Positions 2,381 to 20,958 of a stretch of 64,000 nt of DNA are shown piece after piece. Both the position numbers and the translations under genes were made by a program. The stretch spans positions 175,336 to 239,335 of the forward strand of contig JACPHO010000001.1 in the NCBI GenBank assembly GCA_016188545.1, written 5' to 3'. Source of the stretch: Candidatus Shapirobacteria bacterium (lineage in GTDB: Bacteria; Patescibacteriota; Microgenomatia; UBA12405). The notes under the pieces were generated by a model, which worked only from the letters and a program-made list of their open reading frames with translations, was not told the DNA's origin and searched no databases. Position 1 is the stretch's first letter, and each line of letters begins with the position of its first letter.

Positions 2381-3264
2381 ATGAATACAATATCGCCAGT
2401 CGTTTTTGAAAATATTCAAATCCGTCGCGAGTATGATAGCCGAAAAGAAACCTGGTATTTTTCAATTGTTGATATTATATCAGTCTTGATTTCTCAACCT
2501 GACCATAAAAAGGCTCAAAGTTATTGGACAACTTTAAAAAATCGTCTCAAAGACGAAGGTAGTCAGGTCGTCACAAGATGTGACCAACTGAAATTACTAG
2601 CATCTGATGGCAAAAAGTATCTCACCGACGTTGCCGATACAGAAACTCTATTTCGTTTAATCCAATCAATTCCCTCCCCAAAAGCCGAGCCAATCAAGCT
2701 TTGGTTGGCCAAAGTCGGTCATGAACGAGTTCAAGAGATTGCCGACCCCGAGAAATCAATTAATCGTGCCAGATCAATCTGGCAGAAGTCAGGTAGAAGT
2801 CAAAAGTGGATCCAGCAGCGTACGGTTGGTCAAGAAACCCGTAACAAACTAACTGATTATTGGGCCGATCATGAGATAACCAAAGCCCAAGAGTTTGCCA
2901 TTCTCACCAATCTAATTCATCAAGAATGGTCTGGTGTTTCTGTAAAATCTCACAAAAATATTAAGGGTCTAAAACATCAAAATCTTCGCGACCACACCTG
3001 CCTGCCGGCAGGCAGGTGACCGATACCGAGCTATCCACTCGTCAAATCTCCGAAACAATCGAGGCAACTGGTCTAATGGAAAACAAAACTGCTGGACACG
3101 AAGGTGGTCAAATATCAAAAGAAGCCAGACTAAAACTAGAACAAAAAACCGGCAAAAAAATAGTTTCCAACGAGAACTATCTATCTGATGTGTCCACAGC
3201 TTTTTCCAACGCTAAAGATGCAATTAAATATCTTCGCAAATCAACCAAGTCAAAATCAAGATAA
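2381..3264 (+). pseudogene. dinD: DNA-damage-inducible protein D (DinD)-like gene split into two ORFs (2381-3019 and 3016-3264) by a 22-24 bp palindromic insertion
   Basis: N-terminal part ends HQNLRDH + TCLPAGR*; the second ORF starts VTDTELSTRQISETIEATG; together they align to E. coli DinD (...KILDHMGSTELAAN...). Removing ~23 nt restores the frame. Confidence 0.5.
2995..3018. repeat. Perfect GC-rich palindrome CACCTGCCTGCCGGCAGGCAGGTG; the core ACCTGCCTGCCGGCAGGCAGGT recurs at 57976-57997
   Basis: Read directly; perfect 24-bp inverted repeat in an AT-rich context. Confidence 0.9.
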
Positions 3265-4308: not shown

Positions 4309-5019
4309 CTATCTCATCACATATCCCGCACAAACATCCAAACATATTCCCGTAATATGAGCTGACTCGTCGGTGGCTAAAAAATAAACTGCATTGGCAA
4401 TGTCTTCCGGTTCTCCCATTCTTTTCAAAAGTGTCGCCTCAACTAGCTGGGCTACCCGCTCAGGGTTGTAATTTTTCATCATATCAGTGTTTGTCGCTCC
4501 AGGAGCAACTGCGTTTACCCTAATCTTTGGTGCTAGCTGCCTAGCCATACTTTTTGTAAACCCAAGTAATGCGGCTTTGGTACCTGCATAAATTGGGTCA
4601 GAACTGCCAACATGGGACACGGTCGAAGAAATATTAATTATCGTCCCTTCAGCCATTTTGTCCAAAACATTCTTGGTGCACAGGTAAACACCAACTTCAT
4701 TCACCATAACTACCTTGTTAATTGTCTCAATATCGTAGTTATTCAGTCCTTTTACGTAGGAAAACATTCCTGCATTGTTAACCAAACAGTCTATTTGTCC
4801 AAAGTCTTTAAATGCTCGATCAAATGACTCAGAAATACTTTTTGAATCAGACATATCCATCTGGTAGTATTTGCAGTTTTCAATTTCCGGACCTGGTTTT
4901 GTTCTATAAAAACCAGCAACCGACCAACCATTACCCGAGAATTTTTTTGCAGTCGCTAGACCAATTCCTCTGGAAGCACCAGTAATGAATACTACTTTTT
5001 TCATACCTGATTTTATCAT
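4309..5019 (-). CDS. Short-chain dehydrogenase/reductase (FabG-like)
   Basis: TGASRGIG Rossmann motif, NNAG, YxxxK (YAGTKAAL). Confidence 0.75.
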   Translation of the reverse strand: MIKSGMKKVVFITGASRGIGLATAKKFSGNGWSVAGFYRTKPGPEIENCKYYQMDMSDSKSISESFDRAFKDFGQIDCLVNNAGMFSYVKGLNNYDIETINKVVMVNEVGVYLCTKNVLDKMAEGTIINISSTVSHVGSSDPIYAGTKAALLGFTKSMARQLAPKIRVNAVAPGATNTDMMKNYNPERVAQLVEATLLKRMGEPEDIANAVYFLATDESAHITGICLDVCAGYVMR

Positions 5020-5043
5020 TCAACCAATCAACTCAGCCAGTGG

Positions 5044-5090
5044 CTATTCAATCAAACAAAAAAAATCCCCCCGATTTCTCGAGGGGATTT
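5044..5090 (-). terminator. Rho-independent terminator for the RRM-protein gene (minus strand)
   Basis: AAATCCCC-12 nt loop-GGGGATTT hairpin followed on the minus strand by a T8 run. Confidence 0.6.
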
Positions 5091-5108
5091 AAATTTAACT
5101 AAATAAAT

Positions 5109-5468
5109 TTAGTAGTTGTCACCACCGCCGTAGCTTCCGCCACCGCGATTGTTTCCACCACCATATCCACCACTTCTTTGTGGACCACGTGAGTAATTAT
5201 CACGTCGTGGGGGTCGATCTTCCATTGGGCGAGCTTCGTTGACCCGAAGTGTTCGACCTTCGAATTCTTTACCATCCCACATGGAGATAGCAGCATTCAT
5301 TACTTCCTCAGATTCGACTTCTACAAATCCGAAACCCTTGGATTGACCAGAGAATTTATCTTTAATAACAACTACTGAAACGATTGTTCCAGCTTGCGCA
5401 AAAGCTTCGCGCAGACTATCTTCGGTGGTTTGATAAGACAAGCCGCCTACGTACAATTTTTTTACCAT
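5109..5468 (-). CDS. RRM-type RNA-binding protein with Gly-rich C-terminal tail
   Basis: RNP-1/RNP-2 (LYVGGL, KGFGFVE); GGYGGG tail. Confidence 0.7.
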   Translation of the reverse strand: MVKKLYVGGLSYQTTEDSLREAFAQAGTIVSVVVIKDKFSGQSKGFGFVEVESEEVMNAAISMWDGKEFEGRTLRVNEARPMEDRPPRRDNYSRGPQRSGGYGGGNNRGGGSYGGGDNY

Positions 5469-5561
5469 TCTGTAAAAAACTATTAATAATGTAGTGGCCT
5501 CTCCCTCAAACTTTACTTCAAAGAATCATCCCTACAAGTAAGCATTATACCTTAATTCCTG

Positions 5562-6125
5562 TTATTCCACTACTTCTTCTTCCAAGACCACTTCATCTCC
5601 CGAATCTACCGGTGCAGTTTTAGCCGCTGGCATCGGTGTTGGGTAAGTCAGCGTAAAGCTATCGGTTATCTGTGTACTACTTTTACTGTCTGTCGAATAC
5701 TCCAAAGTAAACAGTATATTGTCGTCAATAATACCAATGGTGGTCATTCCCCCCTTAACTACTTTTTTACCTGGTTTACCGCTTAATTCACTATCTATAA
5801 TTACTCCATCTTTGAACTTGGCTTCGCCTTTTACCCAGGCACTTACATCTTTATACTTGCTATCTATGGCCATTATTTTTAGTCCATCAGTGGTTGTCAA
5901 GTTGGCATATGAAGTATTGTCATTCGAATCAGTCGTCACTTTAATCGTCCCCGGATAACTAAAAACAAATCCCGCTTCATCTGTCCAAGTTAGGGTATTT
6001 ATTGTTGGAATTGGTGTTTGTTCTGGTACCATTGTCGGTGTTTGCTGTTTTGGTGGTGTTATTTTTGTGCACGCTCCCAACACCATACTCACAAAAACCA
6101 CCATCAGCAATTTGTGTTTTGTCAT
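5562..6125 (-). CDS. Putative lipoprotein of unknown function
   Basis: Signal peptide with lipobox-like LGAC; no recognised domain. Confidence 0.4.
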   Translation of the reverse strand: MTKHKLLMVVFVSMVLGACTKITPPKQQTPTMVPEQTPIPTINTLTWTDEAGFVFSYPGTIKVTTDSNDNTSYANLTTTDGLKIMAIDSKYKDVSAWVKGEAKFKDGVIIDSELSGKPGKKVVKGGMTTIGIIDDNILFTLEYSTDSKSSTQITDSFTLTYPTPMPAAKTAPVDSGDEVVLEEEVVE

Positions 6126-6148
6126 AAGCTAAGATAACATAAACCATC

Positions 6149-6577
6149 ATGAAAAACTCTTTGTTTTCAGTTTTTATTTTTTACTTTTTATTTTTTACTT
6201 TTGTTTCTTCTGCCAATGCAGCTAAGAAACGAGTCTATGGTTCCACCGCTGTAGTTTCCACCACCTCCAAATCAGTTGTTGTTTCACCCCGTCTTCGCCG
6301 CGATAAAGGTGCCCTCCTTCTAAATGTCAGCGGCCTGTCTACAGTCAAGTCTCTTACCTACGAACTAACTTATACTGGTAGTGGGCAGGATCAGGGTGTT
6401 TTTGGGTCAATTGAACCTTCAACTTCCGGCAATAGTACTTCAAGATCTCTTTACTTTGGTACCTGTTCGCATAACGTTTGCAACCCTCACTCGGGTGTCA
6501 AAAACGCCCGTCTCACTGTCACCATCAAAACTTCCGCCGGTAAAAACATCATCCGCCGTTATCGCATCAAAACTTAA
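6149..6577 (+). CDS. Secreted hypothetical protein
   Basis: N-terminal signal peptide (FLFFTFVSSANA). Confidence 0.4.
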   Translation: MKNSLFSVFIFYFLFFTFVSSANAAKKRVYGSTAVVSTTSKSVVVSPRLRRDKGALLLNVSGLSTVKSLTYELTYTGSGQDQGVFGSIEPSTSGNSTSRSLYFGTCSHNVCNPHSGVKNARLTVTIKTSAGKNIIRRYRIKT

Positions 6578-7100
6578 ATGGATCTAAAAAAAATATATTC
6601 GTGAAGTTCACAATTGGACGATAGAAGGTGTTAATTTCAAGGACATTACTACGATTCTCCAAGATCATACAGTGTTCAAATATACCGTTGATGAGATGGT
6701 AAAACCTTATCGCGATCAAAAGATCGACAAAATTATTGCCATCGATGCCCGCGGATTTCTTCTGGCCACCCCCATGGCATATCTAATGAATGCCAGTGTT
6801 AGTCTCGTTCGCAAAAAAGGTAAGCTACCCTATCTCTCTATCGAAGAGGAGTATCAAAAATAATATAGTCCTGATATTTTAACAATGCACCAAGACGCCA
6901 TCACCCCTGGCGAAAAAGTAGTTGTAGTTGATGACATTTTAGCCACCGGAGGTACTATGAAAGCTTCCATTAAGATGATTGAAAAACTTGGCGGCGAAGT
7001 TGTCGGCTGTAGTTTCATTATTGACCTACCCTTTTTGGGTGGCAGTCAATTACTCAAAAAATACCCCCTCCACTTTCTTGTCTCCTACGATTCGGAATAG
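6578..7100 (+). pseudogene. apt: Adenine phosphoribosyltransferase, disrupted: frameshift in an A8 run (6586-6593) and an in-frame TAA (6861-6863)
   Basis: Three frames align colinearly to APRT: MDLKKI..(shift)..IEGVNFKDITTILQDHTVFKYTVD..IDARGFLL.., then VVVVDDILATGGT PRPP motif; ORFs 6672-6863 and 6885-7100 are separated by a TAA. Confidence 0.55.
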
Positions 7101-7128
7101 TTACTCTTTTGTGATACAATCAACACAT
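7059..7128 (+). repeat. Copy 1 of a ~70-bp direct repeat: apt 3'-end (..KKYPLHFLVSYDSE*) + extended -10 (TGATACAAT) + start of small ORF
   Basis: ~85% identical to 7455-7522. Confidence 0.8.
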
Positions 7129-7452
7129 ATGACACTTTCATCCACTTTTTTTGATATGTTTCCCACACCAGAATCCGTAGCTAAACAAACGGACGAAAAT
7201 GCAGATGCACTCAGACAGCAAAGGCTCCAAATAACATCCCTCGCTAGTAGTCGTCAGGTTCGCAAGGCTCGGTCTGCAATTCAGCATATCGCTCAGGCAG
7301 AGCCAGTCAGAGACAACTTTTTCTTTCAACCAGTAGGTAGACTGAAGCCTATTGTCTCGATAGAAGACATTCCGTCAGCCGTCTTAGCCAAAGACACCCT
7401 TACCCGTGTAATAGCCAGTGACGTTTTGTTGACAAGGCGAAGAAAAGCTTAA
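7129..7452 (+). CDS. Small hypothetical protein (cassette copy 1), probably leaderless
   Basis: ATG 8 nt after TGATACAAT extended -10; its C-terminal half resembles the N-terminus of the next ORF (F.FQP..V...P..L..RV..S..L..RRK). Confidence 0.35.
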   Translation: MTLSSTFFDMFPTPESVAKQTDENADALRQQRLQITSLASSRQVRKARSAIQHIAQAEPVRDNFFFQPVGRLKPIVSIEDIPSAVLAKDTLTRVIASDVLLTRRRKA

Positions 7453-7454
7453 TC

Positions 7455-7522
7455 AATACCCCTCCACTTTCTTGTCTCCTACGATTCAGAATAGTCACTA
7501 TCTTGTGCTACAATCCACACAT
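7455..7522 (+). repeat. Copy 2 of the ~70-bp direct repeat (pseudo-apt 3' end + TGCTACAAT extended -10)
   Basis: Read directly; aataccc(c)tccactttcttgtctcctacgattc(g/a)gaatag... Confidence 0.8.
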
Positions 7523-7813
7523 ATGAACAAATTCACGTTCCAGCCCCAAACTATATTTGTTGACGAAAGCCTTGTCCGCACTCCAGAAACTGCTCTAAAG
7601 ATGGCTACTGCCATAAGAGTTCTTGAGTCCCGACGTAAGCTATTAGATCATGATATTTTTGTCACTGGTGACGGATCGCCAGCCGTCACACCTCTCGATA
7701 AAAGCATGGTAGGTATTCAGTTAAGGTGCGACCTTTTGTTTGCACTAGCACACCAGTCAACTGTCGAATCATCACTAATGTTAAGGGAGACCAAACGTCG
7801 TCTTGACAAATAG
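7523..7813 (+). CDS. Small hypothetical protein (cassette copy 2), probably leaderless
   Basis: ATG 8 nt after TGCTACAAT; diverged paralog of the preceding ORF. Confidence 0.35.
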   Translation: MNKFTFQPQTIFVDESLVRTPETALKMATAIRVLESRRKLLDHDIFVTGDGSPAVTPLDKSMVGIQLRCDLLFALAHQSTVESSLMLRETKRRLDK

Positions 7814-7841
7814 GGTTTTATCTAGATTCTCTTTTTAGTCT

Positions 7842-7885
7842 CTTGACTTCGGGTTTTATTCAAATCATGAAATTTGTGTTATAAT
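7842..7885 (+). promoter_or_regulatory. Conserved 20-mer CTTGACTTCGGGTTTTATTC (also at 8218-8237) plus extended -10 TGTTATAAT at 7877-7885
   Basis: Read directly; ATG at 7892 lies 6 nt after the -10, implying a leaderless transcript. Confidence 0.45.
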
Positions 7886-7891
7886 ATTCAC

Positions 7892-8113
7892 ATGAACGCC
7901 AAGACCATCAATAATCTTGATAGAGGTTTAGCTGCCAGAGATGCAGCCATCGACATCCTGGAAGCCGGAGTTAGTTCGTTATCAGGCGATATGGCTAGAT
8001 TCATCAGAGGTCTAAAAGTTAATACTAACCTTGATGAAAATTTAGCTGCCAGAGATGCAGCCATCGACAGCCTAAGAGCCAGGTGGGATAAATTGAAACC
8101 TAAGCTTCCCTAA
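7892..8113 (+). CDS. Small protein with internal duplication (NLDxxLAARDAAIDxL twice)
   Basis: 28-bp exact DNA repeat ttagctgccagagatgcagccatcgaca at ~7927 and ~8044. Confidence 0.35.
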   Translation: MNAKTINNLDRGLAARDAAIDILEAGVSSLSGDMARFIRGLKVNTNLDENLAARDAAIDSLRARWDKLKPKLP

Positions 8114-8289
8114 CCAGACCAACACGTCCTATATTCTTTATCAAAATCGAGTTTAATAAAGTAACCAGTTTGTTCTGTTCCAAATTTATAAATCCCGTTT
8201 CGCATATTTTTTGCTACCTTGACTTCGGGTTTTATTCGGGTTAAATTTATCTAGTTTGTTTTTACTTTTTATTTTTTACTTTTGAATTT

Positions 8290-8538
8290 ATGCAATTAGA
8301 TGTTCCCGTTTCTGTCATCTCTTCTTTTAACCACCATCTCAAAATAGTTTCTCCCCGCAAAGTTCTCTTTGGTGGTCGGGAATATTACGTCACCAAAATT
8401 GGTCTTCATCACACTCATCGTATTGGTCGCACTCTCTATCATGTCTTTTCGGTTGCCGCCAACCACACTTTCCTTAAGTTGAGTCTCAACACCGATAACC
8501 TCTTTTGGAGTTTGGAAGATATTTCTGATGAAGTTTAA
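8290..8538 (+). CDS. Small hypothetical protein immediately upstream of dinB
   Basis: ORF preceded by the second copy of the CTTGACTTCGGGTTTTATTC motif; no homology recognised. Confidence 0.25.
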   Translation: MQLDVPVSVISSFNHHLKIVSPRKVLFGGREYYVTKIGLHHTHRIGRTLYHVFSVAANHTFLKLSLNTDNLFWSLEDISDEV

Positions 8539-8557
8539 TCCGGCCGCCTCATCGGTC

Positions 8558-9751
8558 ATGCATCTCGATCTCAACTCTTGCTTTGCTTCCATCGAGCAGC
8601 AAGCCGATCCTCATCTTCGCGGCAAGCCGGTAGCTGTGGCTGCTTATGTTTCTCCGCGCGGTTGTATCCTAGCTGCTTCTGTCGAGGCCAAAAAAATGGG
8701 AATCAAAACTGGATTTAGAGTCAAAGACGGTCGGGCTCTTTGCCCCGACCTAATCGTCATTCCGCCCGACACCGACAAATATCGTTTTGTCCACCATCGC
8801 CTCCACGAGCTGCTATCCTTCTATACCCCATTGCTTGTTCCCAAATCAATTGACGAGTTTGTCCTCGACTTCAAAGGTAGTCAATGTTCTGATTTACATG
8901 CTCTTAGTCGTGTTATCAAGACCAAAATAAAACAGGAAATAGGGGAGTGGCTAACTGTCTCGATCGGACTCGGTCCATCACGTTTCTTAGCCAAAGTTGC
9001 CTCAAATCTAAAAAAGCCCGATGGTCTCGAAGAAATCAATATTAATAACTATGAAGCGATCTATCCCCGTCTGACTCTTCCTGATCTTCATGGTATTAAT
9101 TCCCGTTTTGCCTCCCGTCTCAATGCTGGTGAAATCTACACCGTTACCGACTTTTACAACGCCAATATCGCCCATCTTCGCTCTGTCTTCCGTTCCATCT
9201 CCAGCTACTATTGGTATTTGCGTCTTCGGGGTTACGAGATTGACGATGTTGATTTTGGGCGTAAAAGCTTTGGCAATATGTATTCTCTTCCCGCCTCTAT
9301 TTCTGCTCCCACCAAACTTGGTCCCATTCTCCACAAGCTGGTGGCCAAAACTACTTTTCGTCTCCGTAGCTATGGTTATCATGCCAGAGGCTTTTACCTG
9401 GGGTTGCTTTTTAGCGATCATAGTTTTTGGCATCATCACTATTCCCTCCCTAGATATCTCTTCCACGAAAATGACGTCTACAAAATTTTTTACCGACTTC
9501 TTCTTCGCGCGCCTCTGTGCAAAAAAGTAATTAATCTTGCAGTCTCGTGTTTTGACCTCAGATCAGACAATATGGTTCAGTTAGACCTATTTAATACTGT
9601 CAAAAAACAACTAAGTATATCAAGTGCTATGGACAATATTAACCGAAAGTACGGGAGTTTTATTATCTCATCTGCCGGTATGTCTGGCACTGACTCACTT
9701 GTTCCAGATCGAATTGGATTTGGTAATGTTGATCACTTGACAGACATTTAG
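8558..9751 (+). CDS. dinB: DNA polymerase IV (Y-family translesion polymerase)
   Basis: MHLDLNSCFASIE (DinB start HxDxDxFFA), little-finger domain; ORF track starts at 8528, the internal Met is more likely. Confidence 0.8.
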   Translation: MHLDLNSCFASIEQQADPHLRGKPVAVAAYVSPRGCILAASVEAKKMGIKTGFRVKDGRALCPDLIVIPPDTDKYRFVHHRLHELLSFYTPLLVPKSIDEFVLDFKGSQCSDLHALSRVIKTKIKQEIGEWLTVSIGLGPSRFLAKVASNLKKPDGLEEININNYEAIYPRLTLPDLHGINSRFASRLNAGEIYTVTDFYNANIAHLRSVFRSISSYYWYLRLRGYEIDDVDFGRKSFGNMYSLPASISAPTKLGPILHKLVAKTTFRLRSYGYHARGFYLGLLFSDHSFWHHHYSLPRYLFHENDVYKIFYRLLLRAPLCKKVINLAVSCFDLRSDNMVQLDLFNTVKKQLSISSAMDNINRKYGSFIISSAGMSGTDSLVPDRIGFGNVDHLTDI

Positions 9752-9775
9752 ACTACCACTACACTAGTAGTAGTT

Positions 9776-10339
9776 ATGGATCAAAAAATATTAGACAACT
9801 TTAAGAATAATGGTATCGACGCTTCCTTTTATGAAACAGCTGAAGAACTAAAAGCTCAGCTTTATAAGTTAGTCCCGCAGGGCTCTGAAGTTATGACAAT
9901 GACTTCAGTTACACTGGATGCTTTGGGTATCTCCCAAGAGATAAATGAATCCGGTAAATATAATGCGGTCAGATCAAAGTTATTCGCTGGTGATTCTGAA
10001 GCCAGGTATCGAGCTTCAGTTCCGGAATATTCCATCGGTAGTGTTCATGCGGCGACCGAAGAAGGTCAACTGGTCATCGCCTCAGCCACCGGCAGTCAGT
10101 TACCAGCTTATGCTTATGGTGCCAAAATGGCCATTTTTGTAATCGGTATTCAAAAACTCGTCCCCAATCTGGATGCCGCCTTCAAACGCATCTATGACTA
10201 TGTCTTCCCATTGGAAAACGAACGGGCACTCAAGGCTTATGGTTCAGGCAGTGGTGTCAATAAATTATTAGTTATCAATCGTGAGGTAACCCCGTCACGT
10301 ATTAAAATATTATTTATTAATCAAAAATTAGGATTCTAA
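9776..10339 (+). CDS. LUD-domain (LutC/YkgG-like) protein
   Basis: Length and pattern typical of DUF162/LUD family (..GSVHAATEEGQLVIASATGSQLPAY..). Confidence 0.5.
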   Translation: MDQKILDNFKNNGIDASFYETAEELKAQLYKLVPQGSEVMTMTSVTLDALGISQEINESGKYNAVRSKLFAGDSEARYRASVPEYSIGSVHAATEEGQLVIASATGSQLPAYAYGAKMAIFVIGIQKLVPNLDAAFKRIYDYVFPLENERALKAYGSGSGVNKLLVINREVTPSRIKILFINQKLGF

Positions 10340-20820: not shown

Positions 20821-20958
20821 GACTTGAGATTATAACTTTTCCGGATTGACAAAACCATCATCTTTTCTTATTCTTCTTATACCCGAATTAAACCCAAAGA
20901 CTATCCATAAACATTTTTCCTGTTTTATTCTTAAATCGTAATTCATAAATCGTACTTC

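Follow-up and report, generated by a model that had tools for sequence, protein, structure and literature searches.

The window analysed here is a stretch of 64,000 nucleotides (nt) of contig JACPHO010000001.1 from a Candidatus Shapirobacteria bacterium, and this report concerns the short interval in it that separates the 3' end of apt, the adenine phosphoribosyltransferase gene, from a small gene, orf4, and the Y-family DNA polymerase gene (dinB-like) that follows it. We read the interval as a strain-variable intergenic islet lying between the apt 3' end and the promoter of the orf4-dinB operon. In it three unrelated minigenes, the open reading frames (ORFs) ORF1, ORF2, and ORF3, would have been stacked by recombination anchored in the flanks, a repeated 20-mer would belong to the promoter and operator of the downstream operon, and ORF4 would stand apart as the first gene of that operon. 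To this joint reading, built from sequence comparison, we assign a probability of roughly 0.6. An earlier note on the same DNA had described all four small ORFs as one tandemly duplicated array; behind the apparent single array we find three separate things, i.e., an islet of orphan ORFs, the 20-mer operator, and ORF4. The features of the interval all lie on the + strand.

The left border of the islet is formed by an apt pseudogene (6578-7100). Compared with the intact apt of 173 amino acids (aa) in the related contig L111, it carries an extra A, causing a +1 frameshift, within the A-run 6586-6593 and a nonsense codon TAA at 6861-6863, so the decay of apt reported earlier was real. The remnant is split into ORFs 6672-6863 and 6885-7100. 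Its last approximately 13 codons are part of a module, in which they are followed by an extended -10 element TGnTACAAT, 8 nt, and an ATG, and which is present twice. Copy 1 (7059-7132) comprises the apt 3' end with a -35-like TTCGGA at 7091-7096, TGaTACAAT at 7112-7120, and the ATG at 7129, while copy 2 (7455-7526) comprises a duplicate, non-coding apt 3' end with TTCAGA at 7485-7490, TGcTACAAT, and the ATG at 7523. In both, the -35-like hexamer sits within the last apt codons, and the promoter scan lists the copy 2 promoter as equivalent to that of copy 1. The direct repeat itself (7065-7132 and 7459-7526) is 68 nt long with 91% identity, or 73 nt if one gap is allowed, in good agreement with the duplicated segment of about 70 bp described before. 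Substitutions specific for the window were found in the alignment in both copies, hence copy 2 arose within this lineage. A diversity-generating retroelement with a template and a variable repeat was considered as a source of the pair and rejected, since the six mismatches are not adenine-specific.

The ATG 8 nt past each -10 element opens an ORF of about one hundred codons, as had been claimed. ORF1 (7129-7452) would encode a basic protein of 107 aa (isoelectric point 10.5), with weak coding evidence, and ORF2 (7523-7813) one of 96 aa, listed at NCBI as the hypothetical protein HYV64_01160. The third minigene, ORF3 (7877-8113), has its own TGtTATAAT at 7877-7885, followed after 6 nt by an ATG at 7892 and a stop at 8113, and would encode 73 aa. 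It contains an internal duplication of 55 nt (7912-7966 and 8026-8080) spaced by 114 nt, i.e., 38 codons and thus in frame, with an exact core of 29 nt, one more than the 28 bp given earlier. The whole arrangement was met again in an independent assembly: Logan contig L081 (run SRR12113422) is 100% identical over 6177-8287 and has both apt lesions, so the array is reproducible and not an assembly artefact of the window.

The content of the junction differed notably between related genomes. Between contigs L111 and L001 the identity is 95% for orf4-dinB and 99% for the apt tail. The junction is empty in L111, with the apt stop followed by 12 nt and then the promoter, and in L121 it is likewise empty (the spacing from apt stop to promoter is 10-12 nt across the two). 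In L001, 16 nt are replaced by an insert of 281 nt consisting of TGCTATAAT, 6 nt, an ATG, and an unrelated ORF of 77 aa. L082, which is syntenic with the window and has no apt, carries ahead of the same promoter two unrelated ORFs of the leaderless type, 103 and 88 aa long, whilst L117, L118, and L119 have at this junction a hairpin element of about 150 nt with terminal inverted repeats. Thus, against the three ORFs of the window allele, relatives have zero, one, or two unrelated ORFs, or a hairpin. With alleles of this kind, and with cassettes bounded by copies of the flanks, the hotspot of duplication that had been proposed as one of several possibilities is the one that agrees with our observations. 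The hairpin element (583-770 in L117, and also in L118 and L119) runs from ACGTCATTGCGAGGA to TCCTCGCAATGACGT, is inserted precisely after the apt stop and before the orf4 promoter, and looks like a miniature inverted-repeat transposable element (MITE). In L118 a further orphan ORF of 86 aa was observed at 402-662, between the secreted-protein gene and apt; this junction is thus not the only one in the neighbourhood to collect small orphan genes.

All three ORFs were found to be orphans. Among 5.8 billion protein clusters ORF1 and ORF2 returned only self-matches, that of ORF1 being P0001/L081, and a complete HMMER scan with ORF3 over 1.84 billion cluster representatives likewise recovered nothing but the query. 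Nothing meaningful was obtained for ORF1-3 from Pfam, NCBIfam, PHROGs, PADLOC, or PDB sequences, scanning of viral contigs gave no relatives, and no match was obtained by tblastn against the related genomes. By database and locus searches alike, none of the three is conserved in any relative. Neither are they related to each other. BLASTP gave E values of at least 0.08 for every pair, and when Smith-Waterman scores were compared with 400 shuffles, p was never below 0.05 in the 15 pairs among six ORFs, comprising ORF1-3 and the small ORFs of relatives at the same site. In particular, ORF2 had been said to resemble the C-terminal half of ORF1, which the comparison did not support (BLASTP E above 2, z=0.12 against shuffles). 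A motif FQPxxIxV, noticed in ORF1, ORF2, L082a, and the 86-aa ORF of L118, was weak and without statistical support, and was discarded. Without mutual similarity and without homologues in relatives, ORF1-3 cannot be regarded as a paralogous family born by tandem gene duplication. An addiction or toxin module, which had also been suggested, is not supported, given the lack of matches in Pfam, NCBIfam, PHROGs, and PADLOC, and the layout, as gaps of 70-180 nt separate the ORFs and each of them has its own promoter instead of forming a coupled pair.

Whether the three frames are genes at all was assessed by a codon score, renormalised over sense codons and compared with 112 stop-free shadow ORFs located inside real genes. 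ORF3 scored 0.180, above all 112 shadow ORFs, and its coding nature is well supported by this composition. ORF2 scored 0.070, a value reached by 6 of the 112, and the proven gene ORF4 scored 0.060, so that ORF2 is plausibly coding; for ORF1 coding is uncertain. The starts are uniform: in each of the three, TGnTAnAAT is followed by 6-8 nt and the ATG. As a leaderless start we counted a -10 element 5-9 nt before the start codon with no Shine-Dalgarno sequence, and this is the anatomy found. Such starts are the norm in the window: of its 64 long ORFs, at least 16 show a -10 hexamer at a distance of 4-10 nt from the first ATG, and a Shine-Dalgarno-like motif is present in only 9. The -10 hexamer of orf4 itself is placed 5-8 nt ahead of the start codon in most relatives. 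Judging from this anatomy, the mRNAs of ORF1-3 are likely leaderless or near-leaderless, as the earlier note had expected. No terminator-like site was detected by scanning the + strand from 7100 to 8290, and read-through from the cassette promoters into orf4-dinB is therefore possible.

The alternative that fits these data next best is that the ORFs are not genes, and that duplication has expanded a piece of non-coding DNA in which the frames are accidental or very recent relics. This would agree with the absence of conservation in all searches, with presence and absence differing between close strains, with the ambiguous codon score of ORF1, and with the low confidence of structure prediction for ORF2, whose single-sequence AlphaFold2 model had a predicted local distance difference test (pLDDT) value of 55, too poor for a fold search. 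However, the three consecutive frames (107, 96, and 73 codons) all begin with an ATG 6-8 nt past an extended -10 element, for which we estimate a chance of about 0.001-0.01 per ORF at this base composition. In addition, ORF3 outscores every shadow ORF and ORF2 scores like ORF4, the internal duplication of ORF3 keeps the frame, and L001 and L082 show this architecture again. We therefore hold accidental frames to be unlikely. Under the islet reading, the products of ORF1-3 would most likely be small, basic accessory proteins of recent origin, free of SOS control.

As for the origin of the array, we propose that three unrelated minigenes, each with its own extended -10 element and an ATG 6-8 nt downstream, were stacked at the site between apt and dinB by recombination or duplication, with the flanks serving as anchors. 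Residues of such stacking would be the second module of apt tail, promoter, and ATG before ORF2, and the truncated dinB promoter before ORF3. The copying was either limited to the module, or unequal or illegitimate recombination brought together two alleles that differ in their bodies. Events at the right flank would be marked by the partial promoter at 7832-7861 and by a more degenerate promoter remnant, which the repeat analysis placed at about 7803-7840. Tandem duplication of a whole unit followed by divergence was tried as a simpler scheme and rejected: the DNA similarity between the ORF1 and ORF2 units ends at the ATG and the bodies have none, while the functionless copy of the apt tail is still 91% identical, which shows that the two ORFs are not diverged duplicates.

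Since the start codon is the exact end of the repeat and the bodies have no relatives, we also considered a more far-reaching possibility, in which a portable module of promoter and AUG makes new leaderless genes and the junction between apt and dinB acts as a nursery of de novo minigenes. If this were true, then in a genome where leaderless mRNAs are translated, copying a 70-nt extended -10 promoter with its ATG in front of arbitrary DNA would suffice for a new expressed ORF. We consider it quite unlikely, and prefer to see in the cassette array mostly ordinary genome plasticity at the strain level, which, like the operator and ORF4, overturns no current view.

The right border of the islet is the promoter of the orf4-dinB operon (8208-8247), which looks functional and has a -35 hexamer TTGACT at 8219-8224, an operator at 8224-8240, and a -10 hexamer TAAATT at 8242-8247. 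The spacer of 17 nt between the two hexamers (8219-8247) is the direct repeat TTCGGGTTTTATTCGGG. An exact 20-mer, CTTGACTTCGGGTTTTATTC, occurs here at 8218-8237 and once more at 7842-7861; the window has no third copy when up to 3 mismatches are allowed, and two copies compare with 0.02 expected by chance. Of the two findings that the earlier note named as refuting its reading, one was thus made, as ORF1-3 lack conservation in relatives, and the other was not, the 20-mer being far from randomly distributed. We interpret the 20-mer as the -35 box together with the first half of a direct-repeat operator, TTCGGG-N5-TTCGG. It had been described as preceding both ORF3 and ORF4. Two exact copies are indeed there, but the upstream one is not the -35 region of ORF3, since it lies 31 nt from the -10 hexamer (and 50 nt from the ATG) of that ORF. 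It is part of a truncated duplicate of the orf4-dinB promoter (7832-7861), consisting of 10 upstream nt, the -35 TTGACT, the first operator repeat, and TTC, which breaks off at the border between ...TTATTC and AAATCATG.

The promoter is strongly conserved. More than 25 orf4-dinB promoters have the operator TTCGGGTTTTATTCGG(G) in the spacer that separates -35 from -10, and the same arrangement precedes orf4 in L001-L006, L011, L082, L084, and L085. An exact-match scan of metagenome contigs with the 20-mer gave 31 loci. Approximately 20 of these are orf4-polymerase promoters from diverse lineages, in which ORF4 is only 36-60% identical, so the promoter is better conserved than the protein behind it. 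In L086 the same promoter stands ahead of an operon with recA and recX. Six contigs of high guanine-plus-cytosine (GC) content have the 20-mer as an inverted pair before a radical-SAM gene that is followed by an IMS-family polymerase, and five matches fell inside an IS21-like transposase gene and are unrelated. The AT-rich 20-mer with its inverted second copy stands out in the six contigs (L090, L093, L100, L102, L108, and L116), whose GC content is 63-71%. The same operator in genomes so different suggests that they share a regulator or that the cassette was transferred horizontally.

Because the operator also precedes recA-recX and the radical-SAM and Y-family polymerase genes, it is probably a LexA-type SOS box. 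It overlaps the core promoter, and its recurrence was seen before recA-recX in L086 and before radical-SAM and IMS polymerase genes in L100 and L102. The genes concerned are of the expected kind: according to PMC7739468, the core SOS genes of Gram-positive bacteria include recA, error-prone polymerases, and a radical-SAM protein. The 20-mer marks a very strongly conserved damage-type promoter and operator of dinB, recA, and radical-SAM/polymerase operons, and its occurrence in low-GC Patescibacteria as well as in some high-GC bacteria should be useful for regulon prediction. A literature search with the operator string gave no relevant paper. Distant Patescibacteria (L007-L010) carry the palindrome AGTGAAC-N4-GTTCACT in the same slot, 30 nt upstream of orf4, and this palindrome is the classical Gram-positive LexA box. 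Within a single conserved operon the operator has been exchanged, being a direct repeat in Shapirobacteria and a GAAC-N4-GTTC palindrome in these more distant lineages.

Similar sites were noticed elsewhere. A related operator, TTCGTCTTTTCTTCGGG, at 2347-2369 on the + strand abuts the -10 hexamer TATGAT of a split dinD-like/Bro-N gene. This gene is present as two ORFs (2381-3019 and 3016-3264), both of which match one PHROG profile of 274 positions, and it is probably frameshifted. On the - strand an operator-like TTTGGGTTTAATTCGGG followed by TATAAG was recorded at 20882-20898, upstream of a polysaccharide deacetylase gene, and the deacetylase orthologue of L011 has a similar operator-like site around 2495 (- strand). 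The deacetylase gene may be a further member of the regulon.

The proximity of this promoter is one argument for regarding ORF1-3 as damage-inducible small proteins (SOS division inhibitors or polymerase modulators, for example) that form a fast-evolving family regulated together with dinB. A damage-inducible family was the first function suggested for the array. SOS division inhibitors are typically small and poorly conserved. The operon that follows immediately after the three ORFs has an SOS-type operator, with no terminator-like site in between, part of the operator precedes ORF3, and small ORFs of the leaderless type occupy this position in three related genomes (the window, L001, and L082). 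However, the six ORFs concerned include no significantly similar pair, and the sister strains L111 and L121 have no ORF here. The promoters of ORF1 and ORF2 have no operator, and the truncated copy before ORF3 lacks the second repeat and is displaced from the -10 hexamer. Unrelated orphans of this kind make a damage-inducible family improbable in our opinion.

ORF4 (8290-8538, 82 aa) is of a different nature than the three ORFs upstream. It is listed at NCBI as the hypothetical protein HYV64_01170 of Candidatus Shapirobacteria bacterium, and it has at least 235 homologues of 82-86 aa, in none of which a Pfam domain was found. In all Patescibacterial loci fetched, tblastn placed it immediately before the polymerase gene, and nine residues are invariant when 110 homologues are aligned. 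The AlphaFold2 model, made with the homologue alignment, is a six-stranded all-beta fold with a pLDDT of 95.8, which had no structural match in the libraries searched, and neither an S24 peptidase nor a YolD domain was recognized in it. In many Patescibacteria the gene overlaps the start of the polymerase gene, by 11 nt in the window and by 11-14 nt in L082, L084, and L085, which suggests translational coupling to the polymerase. We regard ORF4 as the first gene of a probable SOS operon and a conserved partner of the polymerase, and as such it does not belong to the cassette array. The polymerase (8528-9751, 407 aa) matched Pfam IMS (4.7e-36) and IMS_C (3.6e-10); its best relatives are from Candidatus Shapirobacteria and other Microgenomates/Patescibacteria metagenome-assembled genomes, and a look-up of the exact dinB sequence matched no record. 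The T-rich 5' leader of orf4 (8248-8289) is absent from L001, L111, and L121, and 8259-8284 of it is an exact copy of 26 nt at 6178-6203. The latter, a (TTTTTAC)n-like stretch, lies in the signal-peptide coding part of the gene for a secreted protein of 142 aa. Contig L081 breaks at both of these copies, and five looser T-rich copies were seen elsewhere in the window, all on the + strand.

The least credible alternative is that a mobile element targeting the apt 3' end (a phage moron, an integron-like cassette, or a toxin-antitoxin unit) brought the cassettes as cargo or left them as remnants: a copy of the target-gene 3' end beside the insert is typical of integrative elements, relatives have the MITE-like hairpin at the same junction, and the array is made of unrelated small ORFs, but no integrase, transposase, or attC-like site is present within several kb, PHROG, PADLOC, and viral contigs gave no relatives, GC content and codon usage match the host, and the repeats are local copies of the flanks with lineage-specific substitutions. 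An inverted-repeat scan gave no attC-like pairs, and the neighbouring genes, which include no integrase, encode among others an RRM protein, a lipoprotein, a secreted protein, apt, a LUD protein, and a cupredoxin. The GC content is about 0.40 throughout the region with no compositional break. An Rfam scan of 5000-10000 gave only sub-threshold chance matches, and none of these inside 7100-8290.

Several points weigh against the islet reading as a whole. Searches of the window and of all fetched loci with blastn and tblastx gave neither a source nor a second copy of the ORF1-3 bodies, so the recombination route stays a model. Among the strains found none is close enough to measure selection on the three ORFs. 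Their expression is predicted from sequence, and they may not be expressed; for ORF1 the codon score is 0.021, reached by 18 of the 112 shadow ORFs and thus in the range of spurious ORFs. On the side of the regulator, no homologue of LexA/S24 was detected in the 64-kb window or in the fetched Patescibacterial loci, tblastn with the E. coli and B. subtilis LexA gave no match in the window, and among the operator-bearing loci the operator was not seen before lexA itself. Both the repressor and the identity of our motif with the one published for Patescibacteria are what we infer. The locus is a compact and well-delimited case of small orphan genes coming and going between near-identical strains of the Candidate Phyla Radiation, on which gene birth under leaderless translation could be tested.

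The operon promoter resembles those of LexA-controlled Y-family polymerases in having the operator between the -35 and -10 hexamers of a dinB-type operon. The LexA box of Alphaproteobacteria is the direct repeat GTTC-N7-GTTC, and direct-repeat LexA boxes have their counterpart here in a direct repeat with a period of 11 nt. The consensus here is TTCGGG-N5-TTCGG, and the repressor is putative, with none found in the window. A direct-repeat LexA motif in Patescibacteria was reportedly described by Sanchez-Osuna et al. in 2017. The study is cited in PMC8565304 and in PMC7739468, the latter of which lists it among the direct-repeat LexA cases. Of the core SOS genes treated in PMC7739468, we find our operator before recA-recX and before the radical-SAM and polymerase operon.

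ORF4 is comparable with UmuD/YolD/ImuA-type genes, being likewise small, located immediately upstream of and overlapping a polymerase gene, and under the same damage-type promoter. ORF1-3 share with SOS division inhibitors of the SulA, YneA, and SidA type the small size, the restriction to a lineage, and the vicinity of SOS genes, but differ by having no intact operator and no membrane or LysM-type segment, and by being absent in sister strains. Integron cassette arrays likewise bring unrelated small ORFs together in a row at a single site; here, however, there is no integrase or attC, the cassettes bring their own promoters, and the repeats are derived from the flanks. The locus also resembles flexible islets, or hot spots of orphan ORFs, which arise between conserved core genes through homologous and illegitimate recombination and tandem duplication, and where the flanks are fixed, in our case apt and orf4-dinB, the content varies among strains whose flanks are 95-99% identical, and flank sequence is duplicated at the cassette borders. 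What distinguishes the present islet among these is its very small size of 1.1 kb, and a cassette that would consist of a promoter and a leaderless ORF, with the duplicated module ending exactly at the start codon.

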